Virus record (IMG/VR): IMGVR_UViG_3300045988_168112
Direction: 5' to 3' (one strand)
DNA from: a virus
Length of the DNA: 64,000 nt
The notes beneath the pieces are model-generated. The model was not told the DNA's origin. It saw nothing but the letters and a program-made list of their open reading frames with translations, and did not search any database. The number at the start of each line of letters is the position of its first letter. Position 1 is the stretch's first letter. A program made the position numbers and the translations under genes. Positions 6,377-63,296 of this stretch are shown piece after piece.

Positions 6377-8446
6377 CTATGATAAAACAGTAAATGAAGT
6401 ATTTAAATTAGTCATAAGACAGTATTCTTCTTTCCATTTATCCCATTGAATGTAACCATCAACAAGAAGAAGGTTCCCTTTACTGGATTGTAGGAATTCT
6501 TCATATTCAGAATATAATTCTGAAAAGACAATCACATTGATGAATTCATAGTTACTTTCTAATGTAAGAATGCAGAACTTGCCTTTCTTCGATTTCCTCT
6601 CAACAATATCAAGAACATAACCGCCAATAATTGCACAGATATCGTGATTGTCACCTTCGAGATACTTGACTTGTCTCACATCATAATAGACAGCTTCATA
6701 GAATTGTTCATGATATCTATTAATAAGTTCTTCATAATCGAATGTAGCAAAACCTGACAACTTTTTCTGTTGTAATGTCCACCACCAATCTTCTTTCTCT
6801 TTACGTGCTTTGATTATACTTGTCAATAAGTCCTTATCTTCAAGTACTTTAACCCTCTTGTTTTCCCTATAGGATTCAATCAGTCTCAACCTCTCTGCAG
6901 GATGTTCTATCCTTTCGAGTTTATCAAATGCACCACTATAAATGAGATTTTCAATCACAGATTTATTGACTGGTGAATTCTTTATTATACATCTATCAAT
7001 AAATTCATCCAACGAGAAGAATTCGCCGTTTTTCTCTCTTTCTTCTGCAATGAATTGTTGAGCTTTCTCACCACATTGTTTCACTGAATTCAATGCCCAA
7101 TACATACTGTTTGTCTTGATATCTGAAACAATATTGATACCAGACTTATTTATATCTACTGGTCGGATTTCGATTTCTCCTGACTCTTGAATTTCATTGA
7201 TATAATATGGATAATCTTTCAATTCAGCATAACTAAATGTCACAGACCAAAACTCAATAGGATAATGGACTTTAAGCCATATACAATTGTAACCGTTTCT
7301 TGAATAAGCAATCGCATGAGATTTGTTGAACGAATATTTACCAAACTCTTCCATCTGTTTCCAGAGGTCTCTTGCATATTCTTCAGTTACACCTTTATCA
7401 CCAAACTTCTTTACGTATCCTTCAACGAACTTATCGCCGAATGTTTTGATTTTTTGTAATAATTTTTTACCAATACATTTTCGTACACTATCAGTGGTTT
7501 CTAAGTCAAAATCAGCAAGTTCCTGACAAAGTCTCATAATATCTTCTTGGTACACAAGAAAATTTTTTGACTTAGATAAAACCTTTTCACCACCTATAGG
7601 AGCTTCGTGTTCAATTTCACCTCTCTTAGCTAAAACAAACTCGTTATGAATATTATTCTCAATCGGTCCTGGACGATAAAGTGCTGCACAGATACCCATC
7701 TCATCAAGACTCTCAGGTTGCATCTGTACACAATAAGACGATAATCCTTTTGCACCGAAATGAAAAACGTCATTCAAAAATCCCTTCTTGATATATTCAA
7801 AAACCATAGGGTCGTCCAACGGAATATCTTTATAGAGGTCTAACTTGATTCCATGATTCTGCTCTATCAGCTTTAGCATATCAGCTAACTTATCAAGTTG
7901 AGCAATTCCAAGGATATCTTCTTTAAGAAAACCGGTTTCCTCTATTTCACTACCTTCCCATTCGGTTACACTGAGTCCTTTCTGTTCTTTGATTGGTACC
8001 CATTGAGCTGATATCTTTTCATCAGGAAATATCACAGTACCACATGCATGTATCGAAGCAGCTTTAGGTGTATTGAGACAAATCATCATGTCGTTTATAA
8101 GTTCGGTATGAGATTTCACGAATTCTCTCAATTCAGTATCTTTACATATTGATACGAAAAAATCCTCAACACTTTTCATACCTTCTTCGTCCCGAAGTTT
8201 AGCTGTGATTCTTCTCACTATCTGGATAGGTACACCTTCACATCTTGCTAAATCTGTAATTGCTGCTTTGAGCTGCATTGTAGTATATGTTCCAAGAGAT
8301 ACAACTTGAGATGCTCCGAATCTTTGTTCCATATACTCTTTAACACGAGGCCGTTCTCGACCACAAAAATCCGTATCTATATCTGGCAACGAACCGAGAC
8401 TGGTTTCTTCACAGATTTCTTTCTTGATTGTTTTAATCGTTATCAT
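6377..8446 (-). CDS. dnaE: DNA polymerase III alpha (DnaE) C-terminal fragment: palm, fingers and OB region
   Basis: SLPDIDTDFCGRERPRVKEYMEQRFG matches the DnaE MPDFDVDF block, and downstream there is FNKSHAIAYS (E. coli FNKSHSAAYA). The track start at 8452 is TTG; the first ATG is at 8446. Confidence 0.85.
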   Translation of the reverse strand: MITIKTIKKEICEETSLGSLPDIDTDFCGRERPRVKEYMEQRFGASQVVSLGTYTTMQLKAAITDLARCEGVPIQIVRRITAKLRDEEGMKSVEDFFVSICKDTELREFVKSHTELINDMMICLNTPKAASIHACGTVIFPDEKISAQWVPIKEQKGLSVTEWEGSEIEETGFLKEDILGIAQLDKLADMLKLIEQNHGIKLDLYKDIPLDDPMVFEYIKKGFLNDVFHFGAKGLSSYCVQMQPESLDEMGICAALYRPGPIENNIHNEFVLAKRGEIEHEAPIGGEKVLSKSKNFLVYQEDIMRLCQELADFDLETTDSVRKCIGKKLLQKIKTFGDKFVEGYVKKFGDKGVTEEYARDLWKQMEEFGKYSFNKSHAIAYSRNGYNCIWLKVHYPIEFWSVTFSYAELKDYPYYINEIQESGEIEIRPVDINKSGINIVSDIKTNSMYWALNSVKQCGEKAQQFIAEEREKNGEFFSLDEFIDRCIIKNSPVNKSVIENLIYSGAFDKLERIEHPAERLRLIESYRENKRVKVLEDKDLLTSIIKARKEKEDWWWTLQQKKLSGFATFDYEELINRYHEQFYEAVYYDVRQVKYLEGDNHDICAIIGGYVLDIVERKSKKGKFCILTLESNYEFINVIVFSELYSEYEEFLQSSKGNLLLVDGYIQWDKWKEEYCLMTNLNTSFTVLS

Positions 8447-10049
8447 AATCAACTAATTTATCTCCTTCTTGTAATTCACCAGCTTTAACTATCATTTTCT
8501 CATCACCTCTAAATATCCGCACAAAATCTGAACTCTTAATTGTTATAGGTTTACCACTGTTTTCATTTATGATGACCTCCTCAACTTTATCATGACGTAT
8601 CAGACGACCCGTTGTTAAAAATCTTTCGAATAGTAAATCATAATCAAGAGGATTAACGAAATTAAGTCCTAATAAATAAGAAACAAGACTCCCACACCCG
8701 CTCCCTCTTCCTGACCCAGTTAAGATATCATTTTTTCTACACCAAGAAGTAATATCACGTAAAGTCAAGAAATAATCAACAACATCTCCATCTTCAATTA
8801 CTTTCATCTCTCTTTCAAGTCTCTCACCTATAACATCATTACTATATTTCTCAAATATCTCAGGATGCTCCTCCAGACCTTTGAAGATAAGGTCTTCGAA
8901 CATTTCTACATTACTATCGTATTGTTGAGCTTCTTCATCTGTCATACGATAGACAGGCATGTGTCTTACTTGAGTCTCAATGACGAAGTTACATTCAAAT
9001 GAAATTTCCTCAAGATTACTTATTGCATTTTCAAATGTTTCATAGAATTTCTCGTCATCAGAAAACAGATAACTCAATTCTTCAAAATACTCTTGATAAT
9101 TCTTGAAGTATTGATTGTGACTTTCGTGCGTCGGTACTTTACCGAGTTTGTTCAACTTATCTTTGATAGGACTCCATTCCTTCTCAATATAATAAGCATC
9201 ACACATTGCAACTGGTTTTAAATCGCTTTTAAAGAATTTCTTCAAATTATCGAGATATTCTCTATCACGATTGTTTTTCTCATATATAACTGTATCTAAC
9301 TGGTAATAGGAAGTTAATTCTTGGAGATTCTTTGGAATATCTTTATAAGCAATTGTTTTTGGGTCCCAAATGAAAACCAATCCATCACAATATTCCTCTA
9401 ATTCTTCTTCAGAGACGAATGATGAATCTTCAGTATTCATAATTTCATTCAACTTCAACAAATTAGACCAACCAACACTATTCTTTACAAATGCCTTTAC
9501 AGTATATTTAAGGTCCTTCTGTTCATTTAGAATTTTAATTTCTAATCCTTGTATTGCACGAAGACCAGCTTTCTGACATGCATTCTGGAATTTCATGGCT
9601 GCAGCAAGTGTACCTTTTTCACACAAACCAAGACTTGTGATACCAAGGAATTTCGCTTTCTTACACCATTCGTCGTATAATCCTACACCATTCATCAATT
9701 CGAATGGTCCGTGTATACCTATATAAGTTGAGATTCTGAAAAGTTCATCGTCTAATCGAGCTTTCCCAATCCATTTCACTCTTTCAAGTTTGACATTCTT
9801 TTCTTTTCCTTTTTCCAATGAATACCAGATACTACCGAATCTGAAGATATAATAGTCATAATCTGTCAAATCACATGCCCAATGAAACTCTTCATCAAAA
9901 AGAATGCCTTTTTCGTCATTATCCCATTTGATAGGTTCAAACAACTCGTAGGTCCTATCATTGATTTTTAAGACGAAATCACCTAATTCTTCATACGAAA
10001 TAAAATTATCGTCGAGATATTGTAATAAATCTGCATATAGTTCATTCAT
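8433..10049 (-). CDS. dnaE: DNA polymerase III alpha (DnaE) N-terminal fragment: PHP domain up to the LFERFL block
   Basis: Contains a PHP-like segment (GIHGPFELMNGVG...) and GSGRGSGCGSLVSYLLGLNFVNPLDYDLLFERFL, which matches the DnaE GRGSGAGSLVAY...LLFERFL block. It ends 20 nt inside the next ORF. Confidence 0.85.
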   Translation of the reverse strand: MNELYADLLQYLDDNFISYEELGDFVLKINDRTYELFEPIKWDNDEKGILFDEEFHWACDLTDYDYYIFRFGSIWYSLEKGKEKNVKLERVKWIGKARLDDELFRISTYIGIHGPFELMNGVGLYDEWCKKAKFLGITSLGLCEKGTLAAAMKFQNACQKAGLRAIQGLEIKILNEQKDLKYTVKAFVKNSVGWSNLLKLNEIMNTEDSSFVSEEELEEYCDGLVFIWDPKTIAYKDIPKNLQELTSYYQLDTVIYEKNNRDREYLDNLKKFFKSDLKPVAMCDAYYIEKEWSPIKDKLNKLGKVPTHESHNQYFKNYQEYFEELSYLFSDDEKFYETFENAISNLEEISFECNFVIETQVRHMPVYRMTDEEAQQYDSNVEMFEDLIFKGLEEHPEIFEKYSNDVIGERLEREMKVIEDGDVVDYFLTLRDITSWCRKNDILTGSGRGSGCGSLVSYLLGLNFVNPLDYDLLFERFLTTGRLIRHDKVEEVIINENSGKPITIKSSDFVRIFRGDEKMIVKAGELQEGDKLVDYDND

Positions 10050-10765: not shown

Positions 10766-11344
10766 TTATTTCTCAAAAAAGATTACCTTTTTCAATTGTT
10801 CGAGTCTCTCTTCAACACTTCCAGTAATTGTAATATAAGGAATGTCATAATTCTTCAAAAATTGTTGTATCTTCATGTCGACATCCTTCTGGAACTGTTC
10901 ATCTACTGACCTTACTCCATCTTCAACAAGAGGAAATTCAATAGGGAAATAAACAATCAATGAAAGTTCATACTTACGACGAACAACTTCTTTTCTTTCA
11001 CGAAAATCTTCGTTACTGAGTTTATTGTAATCTTCATCTTTAGGATTACATGTATCAAACAATCTTGAAGTGTAAGCTGCAACATCAACAATACATCTAT
11101 CACTTACTGAAGGATTATCAAACATCTTATCAAGAATTTCGTTATAAGCATCAAAAATCTTCTTCTGTGATTCAGAATTACCATTTTCATTGATTACAAC
11201 TTCTTCTCTTTCTAACATCTGACGTACAACTTCTGAATAGAAGTTCCACCCTTTGAACATCTCGTCATTCTTAACGGCTTCAAACAGTGTCGTCTTACCA
11301 GTGCCTTGGGCACCACAAAAACTGATTCTTCTGAAATTAATCAT
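10766..11344 (-). CDS. P-loop kinase of the AAA_28 / NadR ribosylnicotinamide-kinase-like type
   Basis: Walker A is FCGAQGTGKTTL. The C-terminal pattern EDGVRSVDEQFQKDVD...ITGSVEERL is typical of NadR-like kinases. Confidence 0.6.
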   Translation of the reverse strand: MINFRRISFCGAQGTGKTTLFEAVKNDEMFKGWNFYSEVVRQMLEREEVVINENGNSESQKKIFDAYNEILDKMFDNPSVSDRCIVDVAAYTSRLFDTCNPKDEDYNKLSNEDFRERKEVVRRKYELSLIVYFPIEFPLVEDGVRSVDEQFQKDVDMKIQQFLKNYDIPYITITGSVEERLEQLKKVIFFEK

Positions 11345-11895
11345 CGATTGTCTCCTTCGCCGTTAATAACATTCCTTTGTTTTCTTGATGCAAGTTTCTC
11401 ATTATTCTGGATAGCAATCTCTTCAATATCCAATCCAAGACTGTCAGCCAATCCATTGAGATACTTCCAAATGTTCTTCCAAGCACTCAGAACAGCAGTT
11501 TTTCTCTTTTCAGGGAAAGTGTTTGTTTCACCATCTTTCCAATCGTCACGCAACCACTTCTTTACTTGTTCAGCAATCTTTCCTACTTCTGAAGGAAGTT
11601 TAACTCCAATAGAAGCAGCAGAAAGTTCTGGTTCTTTTTCTGTCCAATTCCAATCTTCTTCAAGAGGAAGGTCTAATTCAACCCGAATACTTGCCAAGTA
11701 CCACAATTGGTCTCCGATTTCCTTAGAGATTTCTCCGAGTAACTTCTTTTCGTCTTCTACACTGTCAACTTGGTCGAGTTTTTCATAAGTTTCACCCAAC
11801 TCACCACATAATCCTAATACTACATAAGGAATTGCTACTTTCTCATGATAGGCTTTAGTTGTAATAGCCTTGTTTTCATACTCTTTGTAATTCAT
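11341..11895 (-). CDS. mazG: MazG-like nucleoside triphosphate pyrophosphohydrolase
   Basis: Shows the all-alpha NTP-PPase signature: GLCGELGETYEKL ... EIGDQLWYLASI. Confidence 0.7.
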   Translation of the reverse strand: MNYKEYENKAITTKAYHEKVAIPYVVLGLCGELGETYEKLDQVDSVEDEKKLLGEISKEIGDQLWYLASIRVELDLPLEEDWNWTEKEPELSAASIGVKLPSEVGKIAEQVKKWLRDDWKDGETNTFPEKRKTAVLSAWKNIWKYLNGLADSLGLDIEEIAIQNNEKLASRKQRNVINGEGDNR

Positions 11896-11901
11896 AATCT
11901 T

Positions 11902-12546
11902 TTATCTTAAATTAATTTTAGCATTTTCTACCATCTTATAGAACTCGTCTCTTGTTCTCAAAGAATTATCTTTGAAATAACCTGACAAAAATGCTGTACA
12001 AGTTGTTGAATCATCTTCAGCACCTCTTAATTTCACACACATATGTTCAGCTTCAATATAAACAGCAACTCCTTGATTAGGACCAAGAATCTCATTCAAA
12101 TAATCATGAATCTGTTTTGTAAGATTTTCTTGCAATTGAGGTCTTTTAGCAAACCAATGAACAATACGATTCAATTTAGAAAGTCCTAAAATATTCCCAT
12201 CTTCATTAGGAATGTAAGCTACATACGCTCTTCCGACAAATGGTTCAAAATGATGTGAGCATAAACTATGTACTTTGATATTCCCTTCAAAGACAATACC
12301 ATCATATTTATTATCGTTAGGAAATACTGCAATTACAGGAGGTTCGTTATAAGCTCCTGAAGTTACTTCTTTTACATACATCTTCGCAACTCGATAAGGA
12401 GTCTTGACCATATTAGGGTCATTCTCCCAATCATATCCTAATGCTGTGAGAAATTTGCCAAATGCTTCTTCAGCGTTAATCAACATCTTTGTTTTTTCTA
12501 CTTCAGACAGAACTATATTCTGTCCAGCTTTAATCTTCTTTTCCAT
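11902..12546 (-). CDS. folE: GTP cyclohydrolase I
   Basis: SLCSHHFEPFVGRAYVAYIP...GLSKLNRIVHWFAKRPQLQENLTKQI matches the FolE active-site blocks CEHH...GLSK...RPQ.QE. Confidence 0.9.
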   Translation of the reverse strand: MEKKIKAGQNIVLSEVEKTKMLINAEEAFGKFLTALGYDWENDPNMVKTPYRVAKMYVKEVTSGAYNEPPVIAVFPNDNKYDGIVFEGNIKVHSLCSHHFEPFVGRAYVAYIPNEDGNILGLSKLNRIVHWFAKRPQLQENLTKQIHDYLNEILGPNQGVAVYIEAEHMCVKLRGAEDDSTTCTAFLSGYFKDNSLRTRDEFYKMVENAKINLR

Positions 12547-12549
12547 ATA

Positions 12550-13398
12550 TTAAACTCCTCGTTTTGTTCCCCAAATTATAATCTGTAATCTATCTGAATA
12601 ACGATATCCATGCTCTGCACAATATTCAGCAACCATCTGTCTATTCTGGTCTAATTCATCATTTCGTGAACCGGCGGGCATGAGCGTTATATTCCAAGGA
12701 TTAATGAATCTTGTATCAAACCATATCTCAGTTCCATTGAATTCTTGAGAATATCTCTTACGAGATTTCTTTTGGATATCGTACAACATCAAATCATGGA
12801 TTTGTTTTTCGATTTCTTTAAAATCTTCTTTTCTACTGACCACATACTTCAGACTAAAATCCTTCGCATGTTCAATCATATTCCACAATGCTTCAATATT
12901 AAATCTTTCTACAGCATGTTTCTTCAAAGCTGGACTCCATTTCATTCCAAGTTTCTTAAGCTTCTCATCAGTAGGCTCTGAAGATGACAATTTCGGCGAG
13001 ATATTAATCAAATCTATTTCTTTCAATATAGACTCATCTACAAGAAGTGTTCCATTCGTCTCTATAAGAACATCCATACAATAATCGTTAGCTATCTCAA
13101 TCAAGTCAGCGACAACATCTGGATACAAGAAAGCTTCACCCCCACTTATAGAAAGTGCAGTTGTCATCGGATATTTCTCAATGATATCGACAACTGATTG
13201 ATAGTTGTATTTACCTTTCTCAGGAGCAAAGCTGGAATAAGCGGTATCACATATACTGTTATCAAAACAACAACGAAGATTGCAGCCAGACAAACGGACA
13301 AAAATTGTCGCTTCGCCTGCTGTATTTCCTTCTCCTTCAATAGAATTAAAGACCTCGATAATTGGTCTCTTCTTTTCGTAATCAATATTTCTCATCAT
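12550..13398 (-). CDS. queE: 7-carboxy-7-deazaguanine synthase (radical SAM, QueE)
   Basis: N-terminus IIEVFNSIEGEGNTAGEATIFVRLSGCNLRCCFDNSICDTAY matches the QueE pattern EIF.S.QGEG...F.R..GCNL.C..CDT. The cysteine cluster carries a short insertion. Confidence 0.85.
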   Translation of the reverse strand: MMRNIDYEKKRPIIEVFNSIEGEGNTAGEATIFVRLSGCNLRCCFDNSICDTAYSSFAPEKGKYNYQSVVDIIEKYPMTTALSISGGEAFLYPDVVADLIEIANDYCMDVLIETNGTLLVDESILKEIDLINISPKLSSSEPTDEKLKKLGMKWSPALKKHAVERFNIEALWNMIEHAKDFSLKYVVSRKEDFKEIEKQIHDLMLYDIQKKSRKRYSQEFNGTEIWFDTRFINPWNITLMPAGSRNDELDQNRQMVAEYCAEHGYRYSDRLQIIIWGTKRGV

Positions 13399-14009
13399 TA
13401 TTTAACTTGCTGTTCTACTTTAGGATTTTCAAACCATTTTGTTTCTGGATTTTTCTTCTGATGTCTTCCGTCAAGATACCAATTGAATAATTCTACACTC
13501 CACTCACTTGTTACTGATTGTGAACATTCAAATGGTATTTCAAATACACTCGACATCGATACAATATCTTCTCTTTCTGCAGTAGCACTTCCTGTTCTTG
13601 TTTCGTAATATTGTACCTTATCAAGACATATCTTCGATTCGTTATTATTCATTTTCGTACAATCGAGAATGCTTTGAATTCCTGACAAAAAGAATAACGA
13701 CAACATTTCTGCTGACGGATTAAATGGTAAAGAGACCCATCTTTCACTATGCTTTTTGATGAAGTTAATGTATTCTTGATTATCTTTGTCCCAAAAAACT
13801 GTACAATGGTCAAACGAATTAATGAATTGTTTTATCGAACCCTTCATTAATCCAAAATCATAAATCATTCCAGCATTATCTAAAGCACTTGCCTTCAGAC
13901 TTACCAATACTTTAAAGGAATGTCCGTGCAGACTTTTTTTGCAATAATTTGTTGAACAATTACGCACAATATGCGCCATCTCTCCTTCGAATTCTTTTGT
14001 AATAATCAT
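13398..14009 (-). CDS. queD: 6-carboxy-5,6,7,8-tetrahydropterin synthase (QueD/PTPS family)
   Basis: FEGEMAHIVRN...LHGHSFKVLVSL...MIYDFGLMK matches the QueD F.AAH.L...GH.CG.LHGH and DF..L blocks. Confidence 0.85.
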   Translation of the reverse strand: MIITKEFEGEMAHIVRNCSTNYCKKSLHGHSFKVLVSLKASALDNAGMIYDFGLMKGSIKQFINSFDHCTVFWDKDNQEYINFIKKHSERWVSLPFNPSAEMLSLFFLSGIQSILDCTKMNNNESKICLDKVQYYETRTGSATAEREDIVSMSSVFEIPFECSQSVTSEWSVELFNWYLDGRHQKKNPETKWFENPKVEQQVK

Positions 14010-14049: not shown

Positions 14050-14532
14050 TCACTTCAGTTTTTCGAGTGGAAGGGTATATAGCAATTTGATTTTGAAGTA
14101 AATATATGGCACAAAAGAAGAGATTCCATTTTTCAAGATTCTCACTGAATTTTCATTAGGATGATTAGCTTTGATGGTATATTCAATTCCTTCCCAGATT
14201 ACCGTTTCTCCTGGTTTTAATAGATAAAATTTATCCCAATAAGATATTGATTCTTTTGATTTAGGATTATACTGAAAATTTGGAAGTCCATATTCTTGAA
14301 TAAATTCTTTTTTCCAGAAAAATTCAAATGCTTCATCTAATTCAAAAATGTTCGGTAGTAAGAATTTCTTTGAAAGGTCTAAAATTTTGAATTTCTTTTT
14401 CTCTGCTATATCTTCATTCATCTTTTTGAATTCAGGTCTATCGTAAATAATTGACCTTAACTTACAACTTAAATACTCTAACTGTAGTATTTTTATAAAC
14501 TCTTCATTAGTTAAACTGCGTGATTTTTCCAT
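14050..14532 (-). CDS. hypothetical protein (160 aa)
   Basis: ORF immediately upstream (minus sense) of queD. No motif recognised. Confidence 0.5.
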   Translation of the reverse strand: MEKSRSLTNEEFIKILQLEYLSCKLRSIIYDRPEFKKMNEDIAEKKKFKILDLSKKFLLPNIFELDEAFEFFWKKEFIQEYGLPNFQYNPKSKESISYWDKFYLLKPGETVIWEGIEYTIKANHPNENSVRILKNGISSFVPYIYFKIKLLYTLPLEKLK

Positions 14533-14573
14533 ATCGAATTTTTGCTTGCAAAACTACAAACTATCTTTCAATA

Positions 14574-14603
14574 TGGAAAGAAAGGGTTACTTAATTGTAA
14601 CCC
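14574..14603 (-). terminator. rho-independent terminator
   Basis: Perfect 7-bp stem GGGTTAC/GTAACCC (14584-14590 and 14597-14603) with a 6-nt loop. It starts 3 nt after the stop at 14606 and is followed on the minus strand by UUUCUUUCC. Confidence 0.6.
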
Positions 14604-14612
14604 TATTATTTC
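14575..14612. repeat. left copy of an imperfect inverted repeat flanking the GC-richer island
   Basis: GGAAAGAAAGGGTTACTTAATTGTAACCCTATTATTTC. The reverse complement of the right copy is GGAAAGAAGGGGTGAAAATCAAAGTAACCCCTATTTCC. Shared blocks are GGAAAGAA, GGGT, GTAACCC and TATT. Confidence 0.5.
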
Positions 14613-15529
14613 TCCTTGTATATCCCGGTCACTGTCCCTTCCTCGTCCGTTATGAATAGGGTCTTGTGCTCCTTTGATTCGTACACTCTTTCCGACAATC
14701 TGCTTACTGGGTATGTGTTGCTGTTGCTGTCCTTGATAGCATACATTATTTTGTTTCCTTTGTTGAAAGTGGGTTCCTTTGACTGCTTCTTGTTGTCTTC
14801 CATTACCCATTTGTTGCACATGTATAGGAGACACACCGCTTTCCGGAACACATGGAAATCGTCCTCGTCTATCATTACCCTTTCCTTGTCCCCAAATCCG
14901 ATTGAATAGACCATTCTTTCCATGTCGTATACCTTATGCAGGGGCTTTGTTAGAGTATGGGTGAGATGGAAGATTGTTTCACTAATCATGTTTTCCGTGT
15001 CTTCTTCTTCCTTTATCTCAATCATTGTCTCCTTGTTTATGAATGGGTTCAGTACGTCAATCATGCCGGACATCACGTCAGTAATAAACTGTCTTGCCGA
15101 ATGTCTTACACATGGTATGCTGCCCTTTTCTTCTATGAGTATCACATCTTCCCCCTCTTTATAGATTGCATTCATGCCAAGTTCCGTTATATACATCAAT
15201 GTGACCATATCGGTTCCCTTGATTATATACGTGTCTCCGTACTTCTGCTTTAGCTTGTATATGGCAATGTTCATCCTCTGTTCAAACATCTTTGTCTCCT
15301 TCTCTTCTCTTCCTTCTATCTCCTTGTAGAAATCACTGATGAATTGTTCCACGTGAAACAATGGACTTTTTGCTGTTTGTTCTCCTATCAATATAGCGGT
15401 AGCTTGTTTTGAGTTAGAGACTGTTAAGTCCATTAAATCGCAAATATTGAATACTTTTTTGATTTTGTCTTCTGTACAGCATACCAAAATACTGTTGTCG
15501 TACTTTTTCTGAAATTCTTCCTTGTCCAT
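14606..15529 (-). CDS. hypothetical protein (307 aa) in a compositionally distinct island
   Basis: Longest ORF in the island. The DNA here is visibly GC-richer than its flanks, and the ORF track shows a pile of overlapping stop-free frames only in this region. No motif recognised. Confidence 0.6.
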   Translation of the reverse strand: MDKEEFQKKYDNSILVCCTEDKIKKVFNICDLMDLTVSNSKQATAILIGEQTAKSPLFHVEQFISDFYKEIEGREEKETKMFEQRMNIAIYKLKQKYGDTYIIKGTDMVTLMYITELGMNAIYKEGEDVILIEEKGSIPCVRHSARQFITDVMSGMIDVLNPFINKETMIEIKEEEDTENMISETIFHLTHTLTKPLHKVYDMERMVYSIGFGDKERVMIDEDDFHVFRKAVCLLYMCNKWVMEDNKKQSKEPTFNKGNKIMYAIKDSNSNTYPVSRLSERVYESKEHKTLFITDEEGTVTGIYKEK

Positions 15530-23950: not shown

Positions 23951-26900
23951 TTAGAACCAATCTGGATAAGCACTAATATATTGGTCGTAACCATTCATCT
24001 TTGTACATCCTCTGAAACATCCGCTTTTGGATATACTGTCAACATCCGGGAAACCGAATTGATATGGTTGGAATATTCTCTTAAAATAATAAAACAGAGG
24101 CATATAAGCTGACGGCAATTTTACTCCGGCTACTATACAATCCCATCTCGGTTGAGACGTCATATTTGAGCAACCGCTAAATGTACTTGTGCAACTGTCT
24201 ATATGTTTCAGTACCCCCGATTCTATATAACTATTATCAGTTCCCGTAGGTCCAGGTTTATTCTCGGTTACATCTCCAAAAGCATATTCAGCCGTCAGCA
24301 AATTAGAACAATTCTCGAACATGCTGTTAATGTTCACAGTCACCGAATGTTCGGGCGGTGTGATAGGACTACCCTGCGAGCCTACTGTTCTCAAATTCCT
24401 GCACCCGGCAAAACAATGCGCATAAGTGCTACATTGTGGAGAATCAGAAAACAAAGACGATGTTATGGTAGTCAGACCACTATTTTCAAACATGCTCGAC
24501 GCGCTTCTAATATCCGGAATTATCACACCGCTTACATTCAATAGACTTGTACAACCGTAGAACATCCCATCGCATCTCGTTCCTCCGTTTGTTGAATAAT
24601 TAAATGCCCCCGAACTTATACTCGTCAAATTTGTACATTGATAGAATGCTTGTGCCAGCGACAACTCACCCACGGTTCCAGAAAACAGATTGCTCGGCAA
24701 TGATGATACACCCGAAAGATTACAAAAACCGTATGCGTTTATCATTTCACCCGAAAGATACTTGAATGATATCCTGCACGGTGACTGTAGATTGGAACAA
24801 CGAGAAAACATGTAGATACATGTGTTTATATTCGTCGCTCCGATATCATTACTTATGCTTGACATTCCCGTACATCCAGTAAACATATAATTCAGAGACG
24901 TTTTGTTACTTGATGTCCTTAACTGTCCACTTACAGAAGAAATGTTACTACATCCATAGAAACAATAGGAGTAATCACTTATCAAATTTCCTCCAAGCAC
25001 GCTTGACAAGTTCACTGAACCGCTCAATCCACTATTTCTATATGTACTCACAAACGTACCACTTGTTATAAAATCAAACAATCCTGCCGGAACGCTTCTC
25101 AAGCTACTGCATCCGTAAAAGAACGAATCTGCCGAACCACTCATAAGACTTGTAGTCCAACTTACAACCGATTCAAGACTGCTGCAATCTTGGAAAGCTC
25201 CTTTATTCCATGATGTTCTCACATCCTCAGTAAACCACTTAATTACTTTTGTCAAACAATTTTGGAAACTTGAAAATCCATCTGCACTCCACGATAAATT
25301 GGCAGACATCCCATTAAAATCGAACAATATTATCTTCGTTCCTCCTGAACTATAGGTATGTGAACTTGTTCCTAATGTCTGGTCACCATCTCCCCATTTA
25401 ACACGCAGATTGTTTAATCCCATGGAAGATGTATTTAACACTGGCAACGTCAGACTTGTACCATTTGATACACTTACTTCCAGTACTGCACCATCTTCCA
25501 TGATAATGTTTATGGTTTTACTGAATTCTTCTGGTCTTACAAAATAACTTCCACTCTCTGTAAAATAGTTAGGACTTGTTGCAATCCATGCATATGTGTC
25601 GTTACAAGGTACCAACCAAGATAATGTACCACTTGAACTTGTAACACCAGAACTTATATTATCTTCTACTGTTACACCTGAAATAGGTGTACCAGCTTTT
25701 GTCCTTACATTATAAGTAACTTGACACTTATTCCTTACCATCACGACATTCACATAGACATCGTCGTTACTTATACTTACCGAACCATTCTGACTTTGAT
25801 ATCCAGCTTTTGATGCTTGCCAGCTAAAACTCTGTGGAGGTACATATGGACCAAATACTGCTCGTCCTGCACCATCTGTATTTTTCATATTACTACCAAG
25901 AGTAATACGTACATCTCTTATAGAAATTCCTTTCTCATCTACTACATCGAAAATGACCTTATAAGTGTTAACTCCAAGAACTATCGTTGCACTCGTATTA
26001 TATTCCCCTACCGATATAAATGTACTATTTTCATTGTATTGAGGTAATTTACTTGCTGTTGCTGTACCTGAATCACCTGCCTCTACATTGAAAGTTGTAT
26101 ATCCTTGACTGTCTGAATATTGTGTCATTCCTCGAAACGATACTTGTGCTCCACTTACTGCTCTTTGCGAACTGTTAACAACCTTTATCGTAACATCAAC
26201 TCTCTTTATCGTGAAATTGATAGGAACACGTACATCTGAATTGTATATAGAGAATGAATTTACTACATCATAACAATAACGATATTTTGCCACATAATCG
26301 TATGTACCTGAAAACAATTGTGTAGATACTAAACCTAATTCGTTCGTCGTCAACTTTTCACTTTGTCCTACAATCTCAATTGTCGCTCCAGAAGCCTGTG
26401 TACTTCCTATAGTAGCTGCAAACGTCACATTAAACGGTACTGCTGCTTTTTCTGCCATCTTTATAGTATATTCATTATTTCCAGCTACAATATTAACATT
26501 TCCTTTTGCATTATTGTAATCTGGTTGAGAAGCAGTCCATTCCCATACACCTAACTCAAGCGTCCAATTCCCTGCAATACCATTAGCATTAGAATACTTT
26601 GTCTCACCATTGATTGTCACTATTGCATTCTGTATAGGAGCTTCTGTTGTAACGTCAACTACTGTCACTATCAAAGTTCCAGTCTGTTTTACAAGGTCAA
26701 CAGTAATTGCAATAGGTTTATCTATCACAACGGCAGTTCCATTTCTCGGTTCATATCCTGATTTTGTTACACTCCACGGATAATTACCTGGGACCTTATT
26801 GAAGATAGCGTTACCATTTGCATCTGTATTGACTGTCTGTAGAGAATCTCCTGCACCTAATACAACAGGCTGATTCTTTACCGGAACATTATCTATTCTG

Positions 26901-29422
26901 ACAGTAAATACAATATTGTACGAAATAAGTCTTAATTCGACTTTTACTTTTGCGTCAGCACCGTTAACTGTTACAACACCTTGTTGTAAATAATAACCAT
27001 CTTTTCTTGCTGTCCAGTTATAACCACCTGAAATTCTAACAAATTGCGCTTGACCTGAAGAAGTTGTAGTGATAACTTCAGTACCAACTGTAATATCAAC
27101 ACCTTCAAGTGGAAGTTTAGTTTCCGAATCAACAACTTCAAAATCAACTAAATAACCTCTTTGAATAAAATCAATCTCTTTTGTTATATCTTTATCTACA
27201 ATGGTTATCTGACCTTGTTGTGTATAGAATTCAGTTTTCTCTACTTGCCAATTATATGTACCAGCAATATCAATAAACGAAACAAGACCATTCGCATTTG
27301 TTTGAAGCGTTACTCCATTAAAAGTGACATTAGCTTTAGCAACTGGCAATGCATTACTTCTTACAACGAATGTTATTGTATATTTAGGTATAGGATTAAA
27401 CTGAACATCGATTATCGCATTGCCATATATTGTAAATTCTTCCTCTTTTGTAATATAACCTTCTTTAACTACCTTATATCTATATGTTCCTGCAGCTAAT
27501 ACAAACCCAGTAGCAATACCTTGTGTATTTGTAGAACCAGTTTGATTTTCAATTTCATCTCCAGTTACTAATATAGAAGCTCCTGGAACAGGGTCAACTC
27601 CAGTACGAACTCTGAATGTCACATTATAATACGGAATTTCTTCCATTTCAAGTTCAATATTAGTAGAATCAATAATTTCTGCACTTCTTCTAATAGGATA
27701 ATAATCTTCAAGCTCTGCCGAATATTGATAAATACCTGGAAAAACTTCAAATGTGACTATCCCACTCGCTCCTGTATACTTTGTAATACCAGCAAAAACA
27801 ACCTTTACACCTGAAAGAAAATCTTTAGTCTCTTTATCTCTTACAAAGATTGTAACAACTCTCTCGTAAGCTGCACCAATCAATTGAATATATTCTATAG
27901 CATCCTTTTCTACTAATAGAGTGTTTTCTACATTTTCAAAGTTTTCTGCCTCTACACTATAATACCAATGACCTCTTGGAAGAATAATCGAAGTTTCACC
28001 GTTTACATTTGTTTTAAGCTCTTCGCCGTTTATTGTTATAATAGCATTAGGAATATATTTATTTCTATTAGAAAACACTTTAAAAAGTATTCTATAAGTT
28101 TCTTCTCCTTCATAAGGTCTGATTAATTCACTTCCAAAGATATTCTTATATCCTATCAAATAATTCTTAAGAAAGGTTTCTATTGAAAATTTCTCTTGAT
28201 AAGCATTGTTCTTATAATATGCTGCAATAATATCTCTTTCTCCTAAATATCCTTGGGAAAACGGAAGATATAATGGTTTTACTTTAAAATCATATACATA
28301 CACATAAGGAGAACTTACACCTACTTCTCTCTCTTGAATAAAAATAGGTGCTATATATTTCATATTAGGTAAGATTGACAATGCTCTACCTGTTGAGAAG
28401 TTCAATTTCGGTGCTTCTATAAATTTTTCATTATTTGAAAGAAGAAGTCCTTTTATATGATAATATATATTGTCATTTTGAAACTCTATATAATCAGTAG
28501 TATGAAACCACATTGAACTTCCAACAATAGCTCCATTCTCAATTACTCCCATCGGTAGAGCTTCTCCATCTGTAGTTTCGTATCCTGCAACACCAAACTT
28601 TAAATTTTGATTTTCCAATGAAGAAACTTTTACTTGCAATGAGATTTCATAACTTAAATTAGGGTCTATAATGATAAGTTTTTCTAAATCTACTCTACCA
28701 TCAATGCCTACAGCTTGATTACCAAAAAAAGTCATAGCATTGAAAATCTCATCACTTCCATTTTCATCTTGTGTTAAATTGATACTTTCAGGTATCAATA
28801 AAGGATAATTATTCAAATCTTCTACACTTGAAGTAAATTCATATCCTTTGGAAACATTCATTACAGTATCAGTTCTATTCCACGTAGGTGAACTATATCC
28901 CATCGACCACCCAGTAGCTTCTGGTTTAAGTAAAGCAAAAATAAACTCATCTAACGAATTGTATCGAATTAATCGTAGAAGCTCACCAAGAATTTCACCT
29001 TCTTTGTTTATAATGTCCAAACGACCTCTTTTTGAATATTCTTCCAAATAGTTATAAAATAGATATTCCATTTGTTCTTGGTCATCTACCATATTTGTTA
29101 CGAGACCTCTATTTTGAATAAACATCTCAAACAATATCTGGTTTGTATCTATTTCTTTATATTTACGTGCATATAAAACTATCAATGCGAATAGATGAGT
29201 TATAGTTCCCCAAAAAGCTTGAAAATCAGGATTACTCTTCTTATTGATAAATGTAGGGAGGATTCGACTTCCTTCTAATTTCGCCAATACATTCTCAGCC
29301 CAACCTACGACAGCTTTATCGTTTTCTTCAAAAAAACGACTGAACATTAAACTATTATATATAGATGAAGCTTGTGGTAAAAACAATCCACCACATGGAT
29401 TCTTTTCTTCTTTACTTTTCAT
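23951..29422 (-). CDS. tail fibre / receptor-binding protein with tandem CarboxypepD_reg-like beta-sandwich domains and a C-terminal BspA-type leucine-rich-repeat region
   Basis: 1,823 aa. The middle third has more than 10 repeats of about 85 aa with the pattern V.D....P..GA.V...G...TT...G......G.Y...V.K.GY. The last ~450 aa or so carry at least 10 repeats of the F..C..L.S(I/V) type: FQDCSSLESV, FYGCSSLRSV, FYGCSNISSV, FTGCTGMSSI, FYQCTNLTSI, FYGCTSLLNV, FAGCRNLRTV, FENCSNLLTA, FSGCSNMTS. Confidence 0.8.
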   Translation of the reverse strand: MKSKEEKNPCGGLFLPQASSIYNSLMFSRFFEENDKAVVGWAENVLAKLEGSRILPTFINKKSNPDFQAFWGTITHLFALIVLYARKYKEIDTNQILFEMFIQNRGLVTNMVDDQEQMEYLFYNYLEEYSKRGRLDIINKEGEILGELLRLIRYNSLDEFIFALLKPEATGWSMGYSSPTWNRTDTVMNVSKGYEFTSSVEDLNNYPLLIPESINLTQDENGSDEIFNAMTFFGNQAVGIDGRVDLEKLIIIDPNLSYEISLQVKVSSLENQNLKFGVAGYETTDGEALPMGVIENGAIVGSSMWFHTTDYIEFQNDNIYYHIKGLLLSNNEKFIEAPKLNFSTGRALSILPNMKYIAPIFIQEREVGVSSPYVYVYDFKVKPLYLPFSQGYLGERDIIAAYYKNNAYQEKFSIETFLKNYLIGYKNIFGSELIRPYEGEETYRILFKVFSNRNKYIPNAIITINGEELKTNVNGETSIILPRGHWYYSVEAENFENVENTLLVEKDAIEYIQLIGAAYERVVTIFVRDKETKDFLSGVKVVFAGITKYTGASGIVTFEVFPGIYQYSAELEDYYPIRRSAEIIDSTNIELEMEEIPYYNVTFRVRTGVDPVPGASILVTGDEIENQTGSTNTQGIATGFVLAAGTYRYKVVKEGYITKEEEFTIYGNAIIDVQFNPIPKYTITFVVRSNALPVAKANVTFNGVTLQTNANGLVSFIDIAGTYNWQVEKTEFYTQQGQITIVDKDITKEIDFIQRGYLVDFEVVDSETKLPLEGVDITVGTEVITTTSSGQAQFVRISGGYNWTARKDGYYLQQGVVTVNGADAKVKVELRLISYNIVFTVRIDNVPVKNQPVVLGAGDSLQTVNTDANGNAIFNKVPGNYPWSVTKSGYEPRNGTAVVIDKPIAITVDLVKQTGTLIVTVVDVTTEAPIQNAIVTINGETKYSNANGIAGNWTLELGVWEWTASQPDYNNAKGNVNIVAGNNEYTIKMAEKAAVPFNVTFAATIGSTQASGATIEIVGQSEKLTTNELGLVSTQLFSGTYDYVAKYRYCYDVVNSFSIYNSDVRVPINFTIKRVDVTIKVVNSSQRAVSGAQVSFRGMTQYSDSQGYTTFNVEAGDSGTATASKLPQYNENSTFISVGEYNTSATIVLGVNTYKVIFDVVDEKGISIRDVRITLGSNMKNTDGAGRAVFGPYVPPQSFSWQASKAGYQSQNGSVSISNDDVYVNVVMVRNKCQVTYNVRTKAGTPISGVTVEDNISSGVTSSSGTLSWLVPCNDTYAWIATSPNYFTESGSYFVRPEEFSKTINIIMEDGAVLEVSVSNGTSLTLPVLNTSSMGLNNLRVKWGDGDQTLGTSSHTYSSGGTKIILFDFNGMSANLSWSADGFSSFQNCLTKVIKWFTEDVRTSWNKGAFQDCSSLESVVSWTTSLMSGSADSFFYGCSSLRSVPAGLFDFITSGTFVSTYRNSGLSGSVNLSSVLGGNLISDYSYCFYGCSNISSVSGQLRTSSNKTSLNYMFTGCTGMSSISNDIGATNINTCIYMFSRCSNLQSPCRISFKYLSGEMINAYGFCNLSGVSSLPSNLFSGTVGELSLAQAFYQCTNLTSISSGAFNYSTNGGTRCDGMFYGCTSLLNVSGVIIPDIRSASSMFENSGLTTITSSLFSDSPQCSTYAHCFAGCRNLRTVGSQGSPITPPEHSVTVNINSMFENCSNLLTAEYAFGDVTENKPGPTGTDNSYIESGVLKHIDSCTSTFSGCSNMTSQPRWDCIVAGVKLPSAYMPLFYYFKRIFQPYQFGFPDVDSISKSGCFRGCTKMNGYDQYISAYPDWF

Positions 29423-29496: not shown

Positions 29497-29559
29497 CAAT
29501 CTCCCTCATCAAAGACCAGTCCATAACAATAGAGGCTCTAAAGGTAGGGGTGTGGGTGA
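29497..29559. repeat. left arm (IR-L) of a perfect 63-bp inverted repeat
   Basis: CAATCTCCCTCATCAAAGACCAGTCCATAACAATAGAGGCTCTAAAGGTAGGGGTGTGGGTGA. I checked base by base that it equals the reverse complement of 32526-32588. Confidence 0.95.
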
Positions 29560-31004
29560 AGAATGAATGGAGTAGTAGTAATTTCGGAGGAACATCAACA
29601 TCTCGTAAAAATTCATATACTGGATTATATATAGAACCGATTATAGAGGCGAATAAAACCTATCCAAGTAGTTCATGTGCTGCCGTGTTGATATACGACC
29701 CGGCTCAAATGGTTATATCTTCTCAAAAAACGGTTGTTTCCCTTTATACTGATTCCCCGTATGTTTATGGAGCGTCAGCATTTTTTGATTCTGCGGCAAC
29801 GACAGATTCAGAAAGACTATATGGATATAGTTATATACAAGGAAGCTTCTATTTGAGTTCTACTTCTGATGGTGATTTTCAGAACTTAAATTATGTACTT
29901 TGTGGATTTGCTGGTGCAAATAGGTTTACATGGGGACAGATACATATAAGGAGAGGTTCGTTGAATTATGTAAAAGGAAAGAATGATTCTACTTTGGGTT
30001 CAGTATTCCAAAATAGTAATAATTATTCTGTAAGAAATTCTTTATGTACTTTGATAACACAAAAAGAAGTGGATTCAATTAATGAAAATCTTAATGCACA
30101 AGAAATAGTGGCAATACCAAGCACACCCTCTTCTACTAACCAAATTAGTATGTTAATTCAGGGGTATGATATTAGTTCCACTATGTCTTCTTATAATTTA
30201 AATCTTGCCGGGCCTTCTGTCGGAAGAAAAATCAATATATTCTTTTATAAGAGAGTACAAGTCAGTTACTCTAAACGTCAATTAATATTACTTGTAAGCG
30301 GACCTCAAAAAACTTTTTCACAAGAAAATCTGACTTTTGATTTTTATGTATTGGTATGGAAGGAATCACCTACATGGAATTATATAAATAGTGGTAGTGG
30401 TGTGCAATATTGGCATTGTTATAACAACGTACCTTCTGCCATTACAAGCAATATGGGAAACAACTTTTGGATGAGTCCAGACAGAAGAATAATGTTTTAC
30501 ATTGGGAAAGGCTCGTGGGGAGCATCAAAAGGAATAAATACAGCAAGAAGCGGTTCCTTTCTGTTCAACGAAAACGGTTGGGCTGTTGCATCACCAGCTA
30601 TCAATGATAGTTATACGGAAGAAGTTAGAAATACTCTTGCAAATTATTATGTCCTTGATATTCAATTTAACAAAAATGGTTCTAAAATGATTGTATTGTG
30701 TAACGGGCAAAAAGGAACACAAGGAGCTACAATTATTACTGATTCTTATGTTGAAGGTATACACCCGACTAATATATTTTGTTTTATAGTGTTAAGTGGC
30801 GGGAAATGGAAAAATATACCATTCCCTGCGGTAGGACTTACTAATTTCTGGAATAAATATACCGCTTCCGGAAGTGGTAAACTTAGACCATTCTTTAGTA
30901 TTAACCAGAACTATTTGGGTAATTCGTGGGATATGAGCTATGTTTATCCGTCATACAGCGAAAATGCAACGGCATATTATGCTTCTCTTACTTTTAATGA
31001 TTAA
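29497..31004 (+). CDS. silent alternative C-terminal cassette of the giant tail fibre (no promoter, no own ATG)
   Basis: This is the only plus-strand ORF of note. The frame is open from 29475, with no ATG before or within IR-L. The track start at 29550 is a GTG inside IR-L. Read through IR-L it encodes ISLIKDQSITIEALKVGVWV, identical to the giant protein. The last ~200 aa are clearly homologous to the giant protein C-terminus: shared blocks include PSAITS, ENGW, NYY(I/V)LD(V/I)QFN and EGI(Q/H)P. Confidence 0.75.
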
Positions 31005-58867: not shown

Positions 58868-59647
58868 TTAAATTCGCTGACTTTTTAAGAAATCTTGAAG
58901 AACATTTATAGAAATATGACCCTCTTCATAACTTTTGAATAGATTTTTAAGAATCTCATCATTCTTCGCTTTAAGAGGCTCGATTCTAATTCGAAAATCT
59001 TTATCAATAGAAAGAATATGTCCATCCTTTTCCATTTCAAGTAAAATGTTAGTTGTTCGAAAATCTTTATCAGATTCAAATTCGTAATCTACATAATCCT
59101 TAGTTTGAACTCCCTTTACAATATCTGCAAAAGTATTTGCATTCACTGGAGTCATAGTCATTGCAAGATTCGTAATAAGAGCTTTTTTGATTTTCTTAGG
59201 ATTTGACTTATCTCTTTCAAGAGCTTTACCTTCTATACTAAAACCAGGTTTACGATTGGTACCTGATTCTTTCATCTCAAGTGCCTTATCATAAAATGCT
59301 CTTGCTTCAGGAGATTTTTTCCAAAGTTGACATTTTACATAAAACTTATTATTTTCAACTTTTGCACTAATAGGTGCTCCAATCCAAAAACGAGATTTAT
59401 TAATAGGTGAGCGAGAGGTTAAATGGTCTAAATTTATTAAACCATGTTTCAAAAATCGGTCAATTATAAAACCATTAGGTTCCATAGATTCACCTTCTGC
59501 ATCTTCAGATGTATCGGAAGCCAACCCTTCAAATATCATTCTTTCGTATCTCCTATCATCACCAATTGGATAATCGAGAGGATTAAAAGAAGATTTCTCA
59601 AAGTCAGCTTCTGTAAAAAAGTTAAATCTTGAACCTATTTCAAACAT
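58868..59647 (-). CDS. prohead serine protease (HK97 / S78-like)
   Basis: HGLINLDHL..., GFSIEGKAL and ITNLAMTMTPVNANT resemble the H...S.G...(E)VSLV..PAN blocks of HK97-family prohead proteases. The gene lies upstream of the scaffold and capsid genes. Confidence 0.7.
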   Translation of the reverse strand: MFEIGSRFNFFTEADFEKSSFNPLDYPIGDDRRYERMIFEGLASDTSEDAEGESMEPNGFIIDRFLKHGLINLDHLTSRSPINKSRFWIGAPISAKVENNKFYVKCQLWKKSPEARAFYDKALEMKESGTNRKPGFSIEGKALERDKSNPKKIKKALITNLAMTMTPVNANTFADIVKGVQTKDYVDYEFESDKDFRTTNILLEMEKDGHILSIDKDFRIRIEPLKAKNDEILKNLFKSYEEGHISINVLQDFLKSQRI

Positions 59648-60468: not shown

Positions 60469-60607
60469 TGTTCTCGAATTTCTTTGCATTCTTAATTGCA
60501 TTGTCAACCATTTCATCAGTTGCTTTTTTCCTCTCTTCTTCAGTAGGAGTATGAATAATACTCATTGTACTGCAGTCATTCCATCTTGATACTTTCTTTG
60601 TTTCCAT
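60446..60607 (-). CDS. small ORF (53 aa), below the track size cut-off
   Basis: My translation is METKKVSRWNDCSTMSIIHTPTEEERKKATDEMVDNAIKNAKKFENNEREDKK, ending at TAG. Its ATG is 22 nt downstream of a strong promoter motif. It overlaps the ARH start (60468) by 23 nt in another frame. Confidence 0.35.
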   Translation of the reverse strand: METKKVSRWNDCSTMSIIHTPTEEERKKATDEMVDNAIKNAKKFENNEREDKK

Positions 60608-63282: not shown

Positions 63283-63296
63283 CAATTGTTTTTATT

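Follow-up and report, generated by a model that had tools for sequence, protein, structure and literature searches.

A FolE-QueD-QueE Operon of a Human-Gut Phage as the Probable Precursor-Supply Half of a Split DpdL/DpdA3-Type DNA-Modification System

The Precursor Operon and the Question It Raises

A 64,000-nucleotide stretch of viral DNA, IMG/VR record IMGVR_UViG_3300045988_168112 (the whole of which is referred to here as the window), carries at 10766–14009 a gene cluster for FolE, QueD and QueE followed by genes for a MazG-like and a kinase-like protein. The first three enzymes are expected to produce 7-carboxy-7-deazaguanine (CDG), and the question raised by the locus is what the phage makes of it. 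The first-pass annotation of the window had recognized neither QueC nor a DpdA/Tgt transglycosylase, and proposed either that the missing genes were outside the window or supplied by the host, or that the phage stopped at CDG or processed the deazapurine as a nucleotide, by an undescribed route. Our analyses indicate that the operon is probably the precursor-supply half of a DNA-modification system of the type of Cellulophaga phage phiST, which installs 2'-deoxy-7-deazaguanine (dDG), in a ~105-kb phage of human-gut Bacteroidota. The other half of the system, homologs of DpdL and DpdA3, was found beyond the left edge of the window in close relatives. The system is a further, split-locus example of the known DpdL/DpdA3 kind and not a new pathway.

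The five genes of the cluster, in the order of their transcription, are as follows.

13398–14009, minus strand: QueD-like 6-carboxytetrahydropterin synthase, 203 aa, first gene of the cassette; Pfam PTPS PF01242, 72 bits (cutoff 22.4)
12550–13398, minus strand: QueE-like radical-SAM 7-carboxy-7-deazaguanine synthase, 282 aa; NCBIfam, PHROG and PDB matches
11902–12546, minus strand: FolE, GTP cyclohydrolase I, 214 aa; PF01227, 176 bits (cutoff 27)
11341–11895, minus strand: MazG-like all-alpha nucleoside triphosphate (NTP) pyrophosphohydrolase, 184 aa; PF03819, 23.6 bits (cutoff 22)
10766–11344, minus strand: AAA_28 nucleoside/nucleotide-kinase-like P-loop protein, 192 aa, last gene of the cassette; Pfam AAA_28, 65 bits

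The family profiles of these five minus-strand open reading frames (ORFs) agreed with the composition of the operon given by the first-pass annotation. FolE scored above the curated cutoff (NCBIfam PRK09347.1-3 / NF006826, 170 bits versus 162). The QueD-like protein matched the PHROG QueD-like family (2.2e-21) and TIGR03367 QueD (5.9e-17, at 61.9 bits below the cutoff of 89), and was 48% identical to the QueD of a metagenomic deazaguanine locus, L134. For the QueE-like protein, the best NCBIfam matches were all QueE models (73 bits versus an equivalog cutoff of 260), the PHROG QueE-like family was matched at 4.7e-50, and the closest PDB sequences were three solved CDG synthases, 5tgs (E 1.9e-9), 4njg and 6nhl. 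It was 28–34% identical to the QueE proteins of phages phiSM, phiST and immuto, had the Cys motif C-x3-C-x6-C-D-T common to the phiST and immuto QueEs, and also had a conserved C-terminal RLQIIIWGTKRGV.

Neighboring genes overlap by 1 nt at the first junction and by 4 nt at the last, and are separated by only 3 nt and 6 nt at the second and third; based on this tight spacing the five genes are very likely a single operon. In two strains (L003, 10853–11785, and L010, 2887–3819) the FolE slot holds a non-homologous GTP cyclohydrolase IB of the FolE2/GCHY-1 type (310 aa), and this in-place swap indicates selection on the activity itself. In a further strain, L004, folE was split into two ORFs.

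The absence of QueC and of DpdA/Tgt from the window was borne out. No window ORF of about 67 aa or more had a Pfam match to QueC (PF06508) or TGT (PF01702), and six-frame tblastn searches of the window with QueC, QueF and DpdA of phiSM, DpdA of immuto, and DpdA3 and DpdL of phiST returned nothing. One candidate for a hidden DpdA, the 307-aa ORF at 14606–15529, was rejected, as it had no Pfam or PHROG match and no similarity to DpdA3, and was absent from L002, L007 and L010. This ORF varies by strain, being either missing or swapped for small ORFs in those three.

DpdL and DpdA3 Homologs Are Encoded outside the Window

The window is about 60% of the ~105-kb genome of a phage of gut Bacteroidota, and absence from the window therefore does not imply absence from the genome. 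Exact-protein look-ups showed that proteins of the window recur on contigs of 99.9–108 kb from human-gut assemblies; one of these contigs, L005 (106,207 nt), is 100% identical to the window over 2550–23398. The closest comparison made for the large terminase was with Bacteroides phages DAC16 to DAC23, at 36% identity. A megablast search of the operon region against GenBank phages gave no match, and proteins of the lineage were found in 73 to 390 blocks of a public assembly index. The remaining ~42 kb of the genome were rebuilt by walking outward from both edges of the window and merging overlapping loci of relatives that were 95–100% identical. To the left, the relatives encode SbcC, an NAD-dependent ligase, an SNF2 helicase, RNase H, UvrD and an intein-containing class II ribonucleotide reductase (RNR), and to the right a holin, the portal protein and a NUDIX-DUF5856 protein.

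Directly after the class II RNR gene, ~14–16 kb to the left of window position 1 in these relatives, are ORFs of 312 and 265 aa. Four IMG/VR contigs (153617, 158629, 144506 and 159716) carry both this pair and the QueE operon, with QueE proteins that have 99–100% amino-acid identity to that of the window. A Pfam scan of the two ORFs gave no match. The 265-aa protein, however, aligned along its whole length with phiST CGPG_00065 at 38% identity (E 2e-62), and CGPG_00065 is the protein by which the DpdA3 subfamily was defined (Cui et al. 2023, PMC10516641). Its AlphaFold model was of high confidence (predicted local distance difference test, pLDDT, 94.2; predicted TM score, pTM, 0.91), and the top 50 PDB structure matches were all tRNA-guanine transglycosylases (TGTs). 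Residues D52 (in LDSG) and D207 (in STDSC) were invariant in an alignment of 58 family members, and we take them to be the catalytic pair by analogy with the DSGG and FDC motifs of TGT. DpdA3 was recognized neither by Pfam nor by a sequence profile against the PDB, only by BLAST to phiST and by the structure search; because Pfam is blind to it, a search with PF01702 alone would miss this enzyme. There was also no significant BLAST-level similarity between the phiSM-type DpdA and the DpdA3 homolog.

The 312-aa protein has two parts. Residues 8–121 are 43% identical (E 1e-30) to phiST CGPG_00067, which is DpdL, a QueD paralog in which LxxxHRHxF replaces CxxxHGH and the proposed CDG decarboxylase (Cui et al. 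2023, PMC10516641). The signature is kept as LEQSHRHIF. Residues 149–302 match phiST CGPG_00066 (29%) and constitute a P-loop domain, which had weak AAA_18 and AAA_33 matches and an AdkA-like adenylate kinase as a full-length relative at E 0.04.

Pfam and tblastn searches of the whole reconstructed genome identified no QueC, QueF, phosphoribosyltransferase, other DpdA or nucleoside 2-deoxyribosyltransferase; for QueC, the part beyond the window was read in close relatives, where ORFs shorter than about 100 aa were only partly scanned. The suggestion that the missing genes lay outside the window was thus right for the transglycosylase, which is a DpdA3 accompanied by DpdL, and wrong for QueC, the pathway branching at CDG through DpdL. 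In place of the canonical queC and dpdA pair, which would have made the pathway an ordinary one, the genome has a non-canonical dpdL and dpdA3 pair that has already been described.

Proposed Pathway and Comparison with phiST

Phages phiST, phi19:2 and phi13:1 have no QueC, and in their DNA dG is fully replaced by dDG, whereas the deoxynucleoside of CDG (dCDG) was not detected (Cui et al. 2023, PMC10516641). The route proposed for phiST is conversion of CDG to 7-deazaguanine by DpdL and insertion of this base into DNA by DpdA3 (Cui et al. 2023, PMC10516641). The gene order in phiST is QueD-QueE-FolE-MazG-like-DpdL-CGPG_00066-DpdA3. The window phage has the same set of enzymes, including the shared order QueD-QueE-FolE-MazG, and like phiST has no QueC and a host among the Bacteroidota. 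The identities to the phiST proteins are 36% for MazG, 43% for DpdL, 29% for the P-loop domain, 38% for DpdA3, 28% for QueE and 46% for FolE. The module is also present in a cultured relative, Chryseobacterium phage MA9V-3 (103 kb).

The two phages also differ. Unlike in phiST, the locus of the window phage is split, with dpdL and dpdA3 ~25 kb from the precursor operon and beside the class II RNR gene, and DpdL and the CGPG_00066-like P-loop domain are fused as one 312-aa protein. The operon ends with an extra AAA_28 kinase-like gene, which phiST does not have. In addition, the window phage has a PolIII-alpha-type replicase, a ~105-kb genome and a human-gut habitat, and its DNA chemistry is a prediction from genes.

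Based on homology, we assign to FolE the conversion of GTP to dihydroneopterin triphosphate (H2NTP), to QueD that of H2NTP to 6-carboxytetrahydropterin (CPH4) and to QueE that of CPH4 to CDG. By homology and from the literature, the distal DpdL homolog would then decarboxylate CDG to 7-deazaguanine, and DpdA3 would exchange guanine in the DNA for this base, probably at all or nearly all G. Such replacement would protect the phage DNA from restriction. The MazG-like and AAA_28 proteins would most likely aid the replacement by adjusting the pool of purine (deoxy)nucleotides. For MazG, AAA_28 and the P-loop domain together, a contribution at the nucleotide level, by clearing dGTP and phosphorylating a 7-deaza-dG nucleotide, is one possibility and ordinary nucleotide housekeeping another; the P-loop domain could also serve DpdA3 as an ATPase partner, as DpdB does bacterial DpdA. 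The presence of the DpdL homolog makes it unlikely that the phage stops at CDG, and since the dpdL and dpdA3 pair is already described in phiST, no undescribed route is needed.

Several observations weigh against this assignment. The final DNA base of the window phage is predicted from genes alone, and dpdL and dpdA3 were read from relatives of 95–98% nucleotide identity and not from the source contig itself. The scores of QueD and QueE fall below the NCBIfam equivalog cutoffs, and the QueD-like protein has Cys-x4-HGH, with one residue more than the canonical CxxxHGH. Many phages that lack deazaguanine also have kinase genes and genes of the MazG type, so the tie of these genes to the modification is putative. 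Moreover, the activities of DpdL and DpdA3 have never been reconstituted, and heterologous tests in E. coli failed (Cui et al. 2023, PMC10516641).

Comparison with Other Base-Modification Systems

Two other groups of phages have DpdA3-type enzymes with different final bases. Campylobacter phages of the Firehammervirus group (CP220/CPt10) have a DpdA3-family transglycosylase (hhalign probability 99.0%), QueE and complete G replacement. Their final base is the deoxynucleoside of 7-amido-7-deazaguanine (ADG), dADG, no DpdL was seen, and the genes lie dispersed in a T4-like genome of 175 kb. Flavobacterium phage immuto, whose host like that of the window phage belongs to the Bacteroidota, has a DpdA of the DpdA3 type (hhalign 99.4%) and FolE and QueE proteins that are 49% and 28% identical to those of the window. 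Its cluster adds QueF, the formyltransferase DpdN and a gene annotated as a phosphoribosyltransferase and has no DpdL, and its DNA contains fdPreQ1 (Cui et al. 2023, PMC10516641). The DpdA3 homolog of the window phage is closest to the phiST type, at 38% identity versus about 24–26% to the Campylobacter and immuto types.

The canonical preQ0/G+ systems, in which DpdA1 or DpdA2 accompanies FolE-QueD-QueE-QueC (for example in phages 9g and phiSM), share the first three steps and a TGT-superfamily enzyme with the window phage. They differ in having QueC, in replacing G only partially (0.1–30%) and in having a DpdA that is found by PF01702-type searches. The Z-genome phages (PurZ, MazZ/DatZ), to which the first-pass annotation had pointed, offer an analogy only, in that they combine an NTP pyrophosphohydrolase beside base-replacement genes with complete base replacement. 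Homology to the window phage is limited to the MazG superfamily, and Z is made on the nucleotide by PurZ; we found no PurZ-equivalent nucleotide-level synthase in the window phage.

A P-Loop Domain Accompanies DpdA3 in Most Loci

We surveyed 80 IMG/VR loci (L139–L218) that contain a DpdA3 relative of 34–98% identity, with flanks of 10 kb. Both DpdL and a CGPG_00066-like P-loop domain adjoin DpdA3 in 72 of the 80 loci; the two are fused in 31 and are separate adjacent genes in 41. Five of the eight loci outside this set are cut by a contig end. The DpdL domain was present in 75 of the 80 loci and QueC in none. Outside the window, the triad was also observed at L096:11071–12813. DpdL without the P-loop domain occurs in more distant phages, such as ACP17 and PA5oct.

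No homologs of CGPG_00066 were found in other deazaguanine phages by Cui et al. 2023 (PMC10516641). Judged by gene neighborhood, the kinase-like P-loop domain is a core, near-universal companion of DpdA3, which is new relative to the published system. If such a partner is required, this would explain why DpdL and DpdA3 alone failed in E. coli.

The MazG-Like and AAA_28 Proteins of the Operon

The MazG-like protein matched the PHROG MazG-like family (4.6e-21) and has the metal-binding motif ELGE(32)...EIGD(59), but had no sequence relative in the PDB. Aligned along its whole length with phiST CGPG_00068 it showed 36% identity (E 1e-30), both being positioned after FolE. For the phiST homolog, HHpred gave a match to dimeric dUTPase as well (Cui et al. 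2023, PMC10516641). A phiST-type MazG was found at most 10 kb from DpdA3 in six of the 80 surveyed loci, and MazG-like genes are widespread among unrelated phages. What ties MazG to the system is its conserved position (in the window phage, phiST, L172–L175 and MT835760) and not its specificity.

The last gene of the operon had been called a NadR-like kinase. The AAA_28 protein was matched by a PHROG "thymidylate kinase" family (8e-28), with weak matches to the NadR kinase domain. Its AlphaFold model (pLDDT 93.8) had as best Foldseek matches the NadR kinase domain (TMq 0.68), thymidylate kinases and deoxyadenosine kinases, and on this model the protein has a nucleoside/nucleoside monophosphate (NMP)-kinase fold. 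The protein is a relative of the NadR kinase domain and not itself a NadR: TIGR01526 scored 21.9 bits versus a cutoff of 341, with only its C-terminal kinase-like part aligned, and the 192-aa protein has no adenylyltransferase domain. The AAA_28 protein showed no detectable relationship to the P-loop part of the DpdL fusion.

Phage homologs of the AAA_28 protein neighbor DpdA3-type genes in three other lineages. In immuto the homolog, 33.5% identical to that of the window, lies inside the deazaguanine cluster (DpdA, small ORF, DpdN, kinase, QueF). In Campylobacter phage CPt10 (L131:4236–6730) the kinase, gp056 (27% identity to that of the window), directly adjoins gp055, which is the DpdA3 of this phage, carried in RefSeq unannotated as a "hypothetical protein"; on the other side of gp055 is gp054, with HD phosphohydrolase and P-loop parts. 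The order in locus L134 is DpdA3, AAA_28 kinase, dUTPase, orf, FolE2, QueD, QueE and QueC. The family is not exclusive to deazaguanine phages, as it is also found in Streptomyces and Bacteroides phages, and two AAA_28 loci (L133 and L135) had no deazaguanine genes within 7 kb. In the 80 phiST-like loci, AAA_28 was never within 10 kb of DpdA3.

Alternative Explanations

The kinase-like and MazG-like genes raise the possibility that the modified base enters the DNA by way of the nucleotide pool. MazG would then remove dGTP (possibly supplying dGMP), the AAA_28 protein and the P-loop part of the DpdL fusion would, as kinase-like proteins, phosphorylate 7-deaza-dGMP, and the PolIII-type polymerase would incorporate 7-deaza-dGTP, with DpdA3 acting on a mononucleotide or just as a proof-reader or repair enzyme. 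Complete base replacement is typical of pool-level pathways, such as those for hydroxymethylcytosine in T4 and for Z in S-2L, and G is completely replaced in all tested DpdA3 phages (Cui et al. 2023). A P-loop kinase-like gene adjoins DpdA3 almost universally (the triad of 72 of the 80 loci, 31 of them fused, and AAA_28 in CPt10, immuto and L134), and an NTP hydrolase is nearby: MazG here and in phiST, the HD-domain gp054 in CPt10 and the dUTPase in L134. The folds, nucleoside/NMP kinase for AAA_28 and AAA_18/AdkA-like for the P-loop domain, fit such a role. So does an observation quoted by Cui et al. 2023 (PMC10516641), that infected cells contained the ADG nucleoside, as does the failure in E. 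coli of DpdA3 and DpdL without kinase-like or NTP-hydrolase partners (Cui et al. 2023). The idea itself is not new, since Hutinet 2019 (PMC6884629) mentions an earlier proposal of a modified-dGTP route in Campylobacter phages. We nevertheless consider this route unlikely. DpdA3 has the TGT fold, and every characterized DpdA or TGT swaps bases in polynucleotides; the conclusion of Cui et al. 2023 was also post-replicative insertion by DpdA3. The genome has no detected phosphoribosyltransferase or nucleoside 2-deoxyribosyltransferase, large phages commonly carry MazG and dNMP-kinase genes for housekeeping, AAA_28 is absent from the 10 kb around DpdA3 in the phiST-like loci, and the P-loop protein could instead assist DpdA3 as an ATPase in the manner of DpdB. 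A mixed form, in which complete G replacement needs a P-loop or AAA_28 kinase-like partner and an NTP hydrolase (MazG, HD or dUTPase) and proceeds partly at the nucleotide level, is conceivable, though we regard it with considerable doubt.

Other explanations concern the product. DpdA3 might insert CDG itself, giving dCDG, or an enzyme not recognized by us might make an amide or other derivative, as in dADG. The activity of DpdL is predicted only (Cui et al. 2023), the P-loop domain fused to it has no assigned chemistry, dCDG occurs naturally in STSV-2, and the DpdA3-bearing Campylobacter phages stop synthesis at CDG yet carry dADG. However, the three tested phages with the same type of DpdL and DpdA3 all carry dDG with dCDG undetected, and in the window phage DpdL keeps LxxxHRHxF and DpdA3 is closest to the phiST type, which together make a different installed base very unlikely. 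Still further from what the genes suggest is an auxiliary metabolic cassette for queuosine in host tRNA or for folate and pterins, unrelated to the phage DNA. FolE, QueD and QueE are indeed the first queuosine steps, and FolE also feeds folate synthesis. However, with DpdA3 and DpdL but no QueC in its genome, the phage cannot complete preQ0 or queuosine; the gene order is shared with phiST, whose DNA is modified; and the slot of the operon is used for DNA-hypermodification genes in sister phages. We give this explanation almost no credence, and a phiST-type system with dDG as the final base is the reading that we prefer.

The Operon Occupies a DNA-Modification Slot

The position of the operon in the genome bears on its function. 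The features immediately upstream of it are as follows.

14050–14532, minus strand: orf160, a conserved flanking backbone gene, present in all relatives
14583–14604, minus strand: terminator-like hairpin just upstream of orf160, with an 8-bp stem (4 GC pairs) and, behind it, a T-rich tail

In related phages, whose terminase is 60% and whose primase is 42–45% identical, the order of the backbone is RNase T, terminase, DnaB, primase, orf160 and PolIII alpha. There orf160 follows the primase gene directly, and the window differs by the intervening orf118 and orf307. The slot between orf160 and PolIII alpha, which the operon occupies in the window, holds a thymidine-hypermodification cassette in two sister phages (L137, 6001–11700, and L138, 6001–12400), consisting of dUTPase/DCD, HMUD2, HMUDK_hel, a thymidylate-synthase-like enzyme and a YfbR-like HD protein. 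L136 has no cassette at this site, orf160 directly preceding PolIII alpha. The thymidine-hypermodification cassette at the same site indicates that this is a DNA-modification slot, and the five-gene operon, including MazG and the kinase, appears from these gene orders to behave as an exchangeable DNA-modification cassette.

The first-pass annotation had singled out orf160 for a profile search as a neighbor of the pathway. The family (198 representatives) had no Pfam match, and orf160 was found to be a conserved backbone gene with no recognizable domain. A marginal profile match to the C-terminal part of 4z1o (E 0.067) suggested a purine phosphoribosyltransferase, but the motif for binding phosphoribosyl pyrophosphate (PRPP) is absent. 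Based on the lack of this motif, and on orf160 being a backbone gene that stands beside a thymidine-modification cassette or beside no cassette, we rejected a role for it in the pathway. The hairpin likely terminates the transcription unit that precedes orf160. After it comes TAGTTTTG (about 14545–14552), which fits TAnnTTTG, the consensus of the Bacteroidetes -7 element. Together with the tight gene junctions, the hairpin and this -7-like box ahead of orf160 indicate one transcription unit, probably starting at orf160, and orf160 is probably co-transcribed with the operon yet not specific to the deazaguanine pathway. A sigma-70 promoter scan gave fewer matches than shuffled sequence, and the sigma-70 model does not apply to Bacteroidota.

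Implications

If the proposed system is correct, 7-deazaguanine takes the place of guanine in the DNA of a phage lineage highly prevalent in human-gut metagenomes; we found no report of dDG in gut phages in the literature searched. DNA containing 7-deazaguanine resists many restriction enzymes. In addition, dDG DNA could bias enzymatic library preparation and signal-based base calling, and hence the counts of these phages.

Replacement of 100% could not be explained by Cui et al. 2023 (PMC10516641). The finding that DpdA3 has a kinase-like partner almost everywhere is relevant both to the way in which G is completely replaced and to the failure of reconstitution. The triad, the second kinase type and the NTP hydrolases name concrete extra components for reconstitution assays.

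Other Features of the Genome

The G+C content of the window is 31–42% across 2-kb windows, mostly ~33%, and all of its genes but one are on the minus strand. Among its products are RecA, an SbcD-like nuclease, a split PolIII alpha, a primase, a DnaB-like helicase, the large terminase and the capsid protein, as well as giant tail or baseplate proteins with CarboxypepD_reg repeats. The single long plus-strand ORF (29550–31004; 484 aa, GTG start, no Pfam match) sits between two giant minus-strand tail or baseplate genes, 23951–29422 (1823 aa) and 31057–41319 (3420 aa), the latter of which encodes Baseplate_J and CarboxypepD_reg repeats.

PolIII alpha is encoded at 6377–10049 by two overlapping ORFs, one for the PHP part (8433–10049) and one for the NTPase/finger/HHH part (6377–8452). 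The second of these ORFs carries an intein in relatives L002, L007, L009 and L010, in three of the four with an HNH endonuclease, and the class II RNR outside the window also has an intein with HNH. TnpB/OrfB_IS605 (Cas12f-like) genes were present at sites that differ from strain to strain (L003, L004, L006, L007 at ~250–2200 and L013:7739–8926), with none in the window.

Upstream of the capsid gene are two genes, at 59635–60516 and 60676–63285. One encodes a protein of the ADP-ribosylglycohydrolase family (PF03747, 86 bits) and the other an 869-aa protein with a PBECR1 (Barnase/EndoU/RelE-like) nuclease domain. The ORF at 63373–64000, which is cut by the right edge of the window, is the C-terminus of a 619-aa NUDIX-DUF5856 fusion of the head module (L015:8723–10582), and this protein is a second one in the genome with a domain of the nucleotide-hydrolase type.

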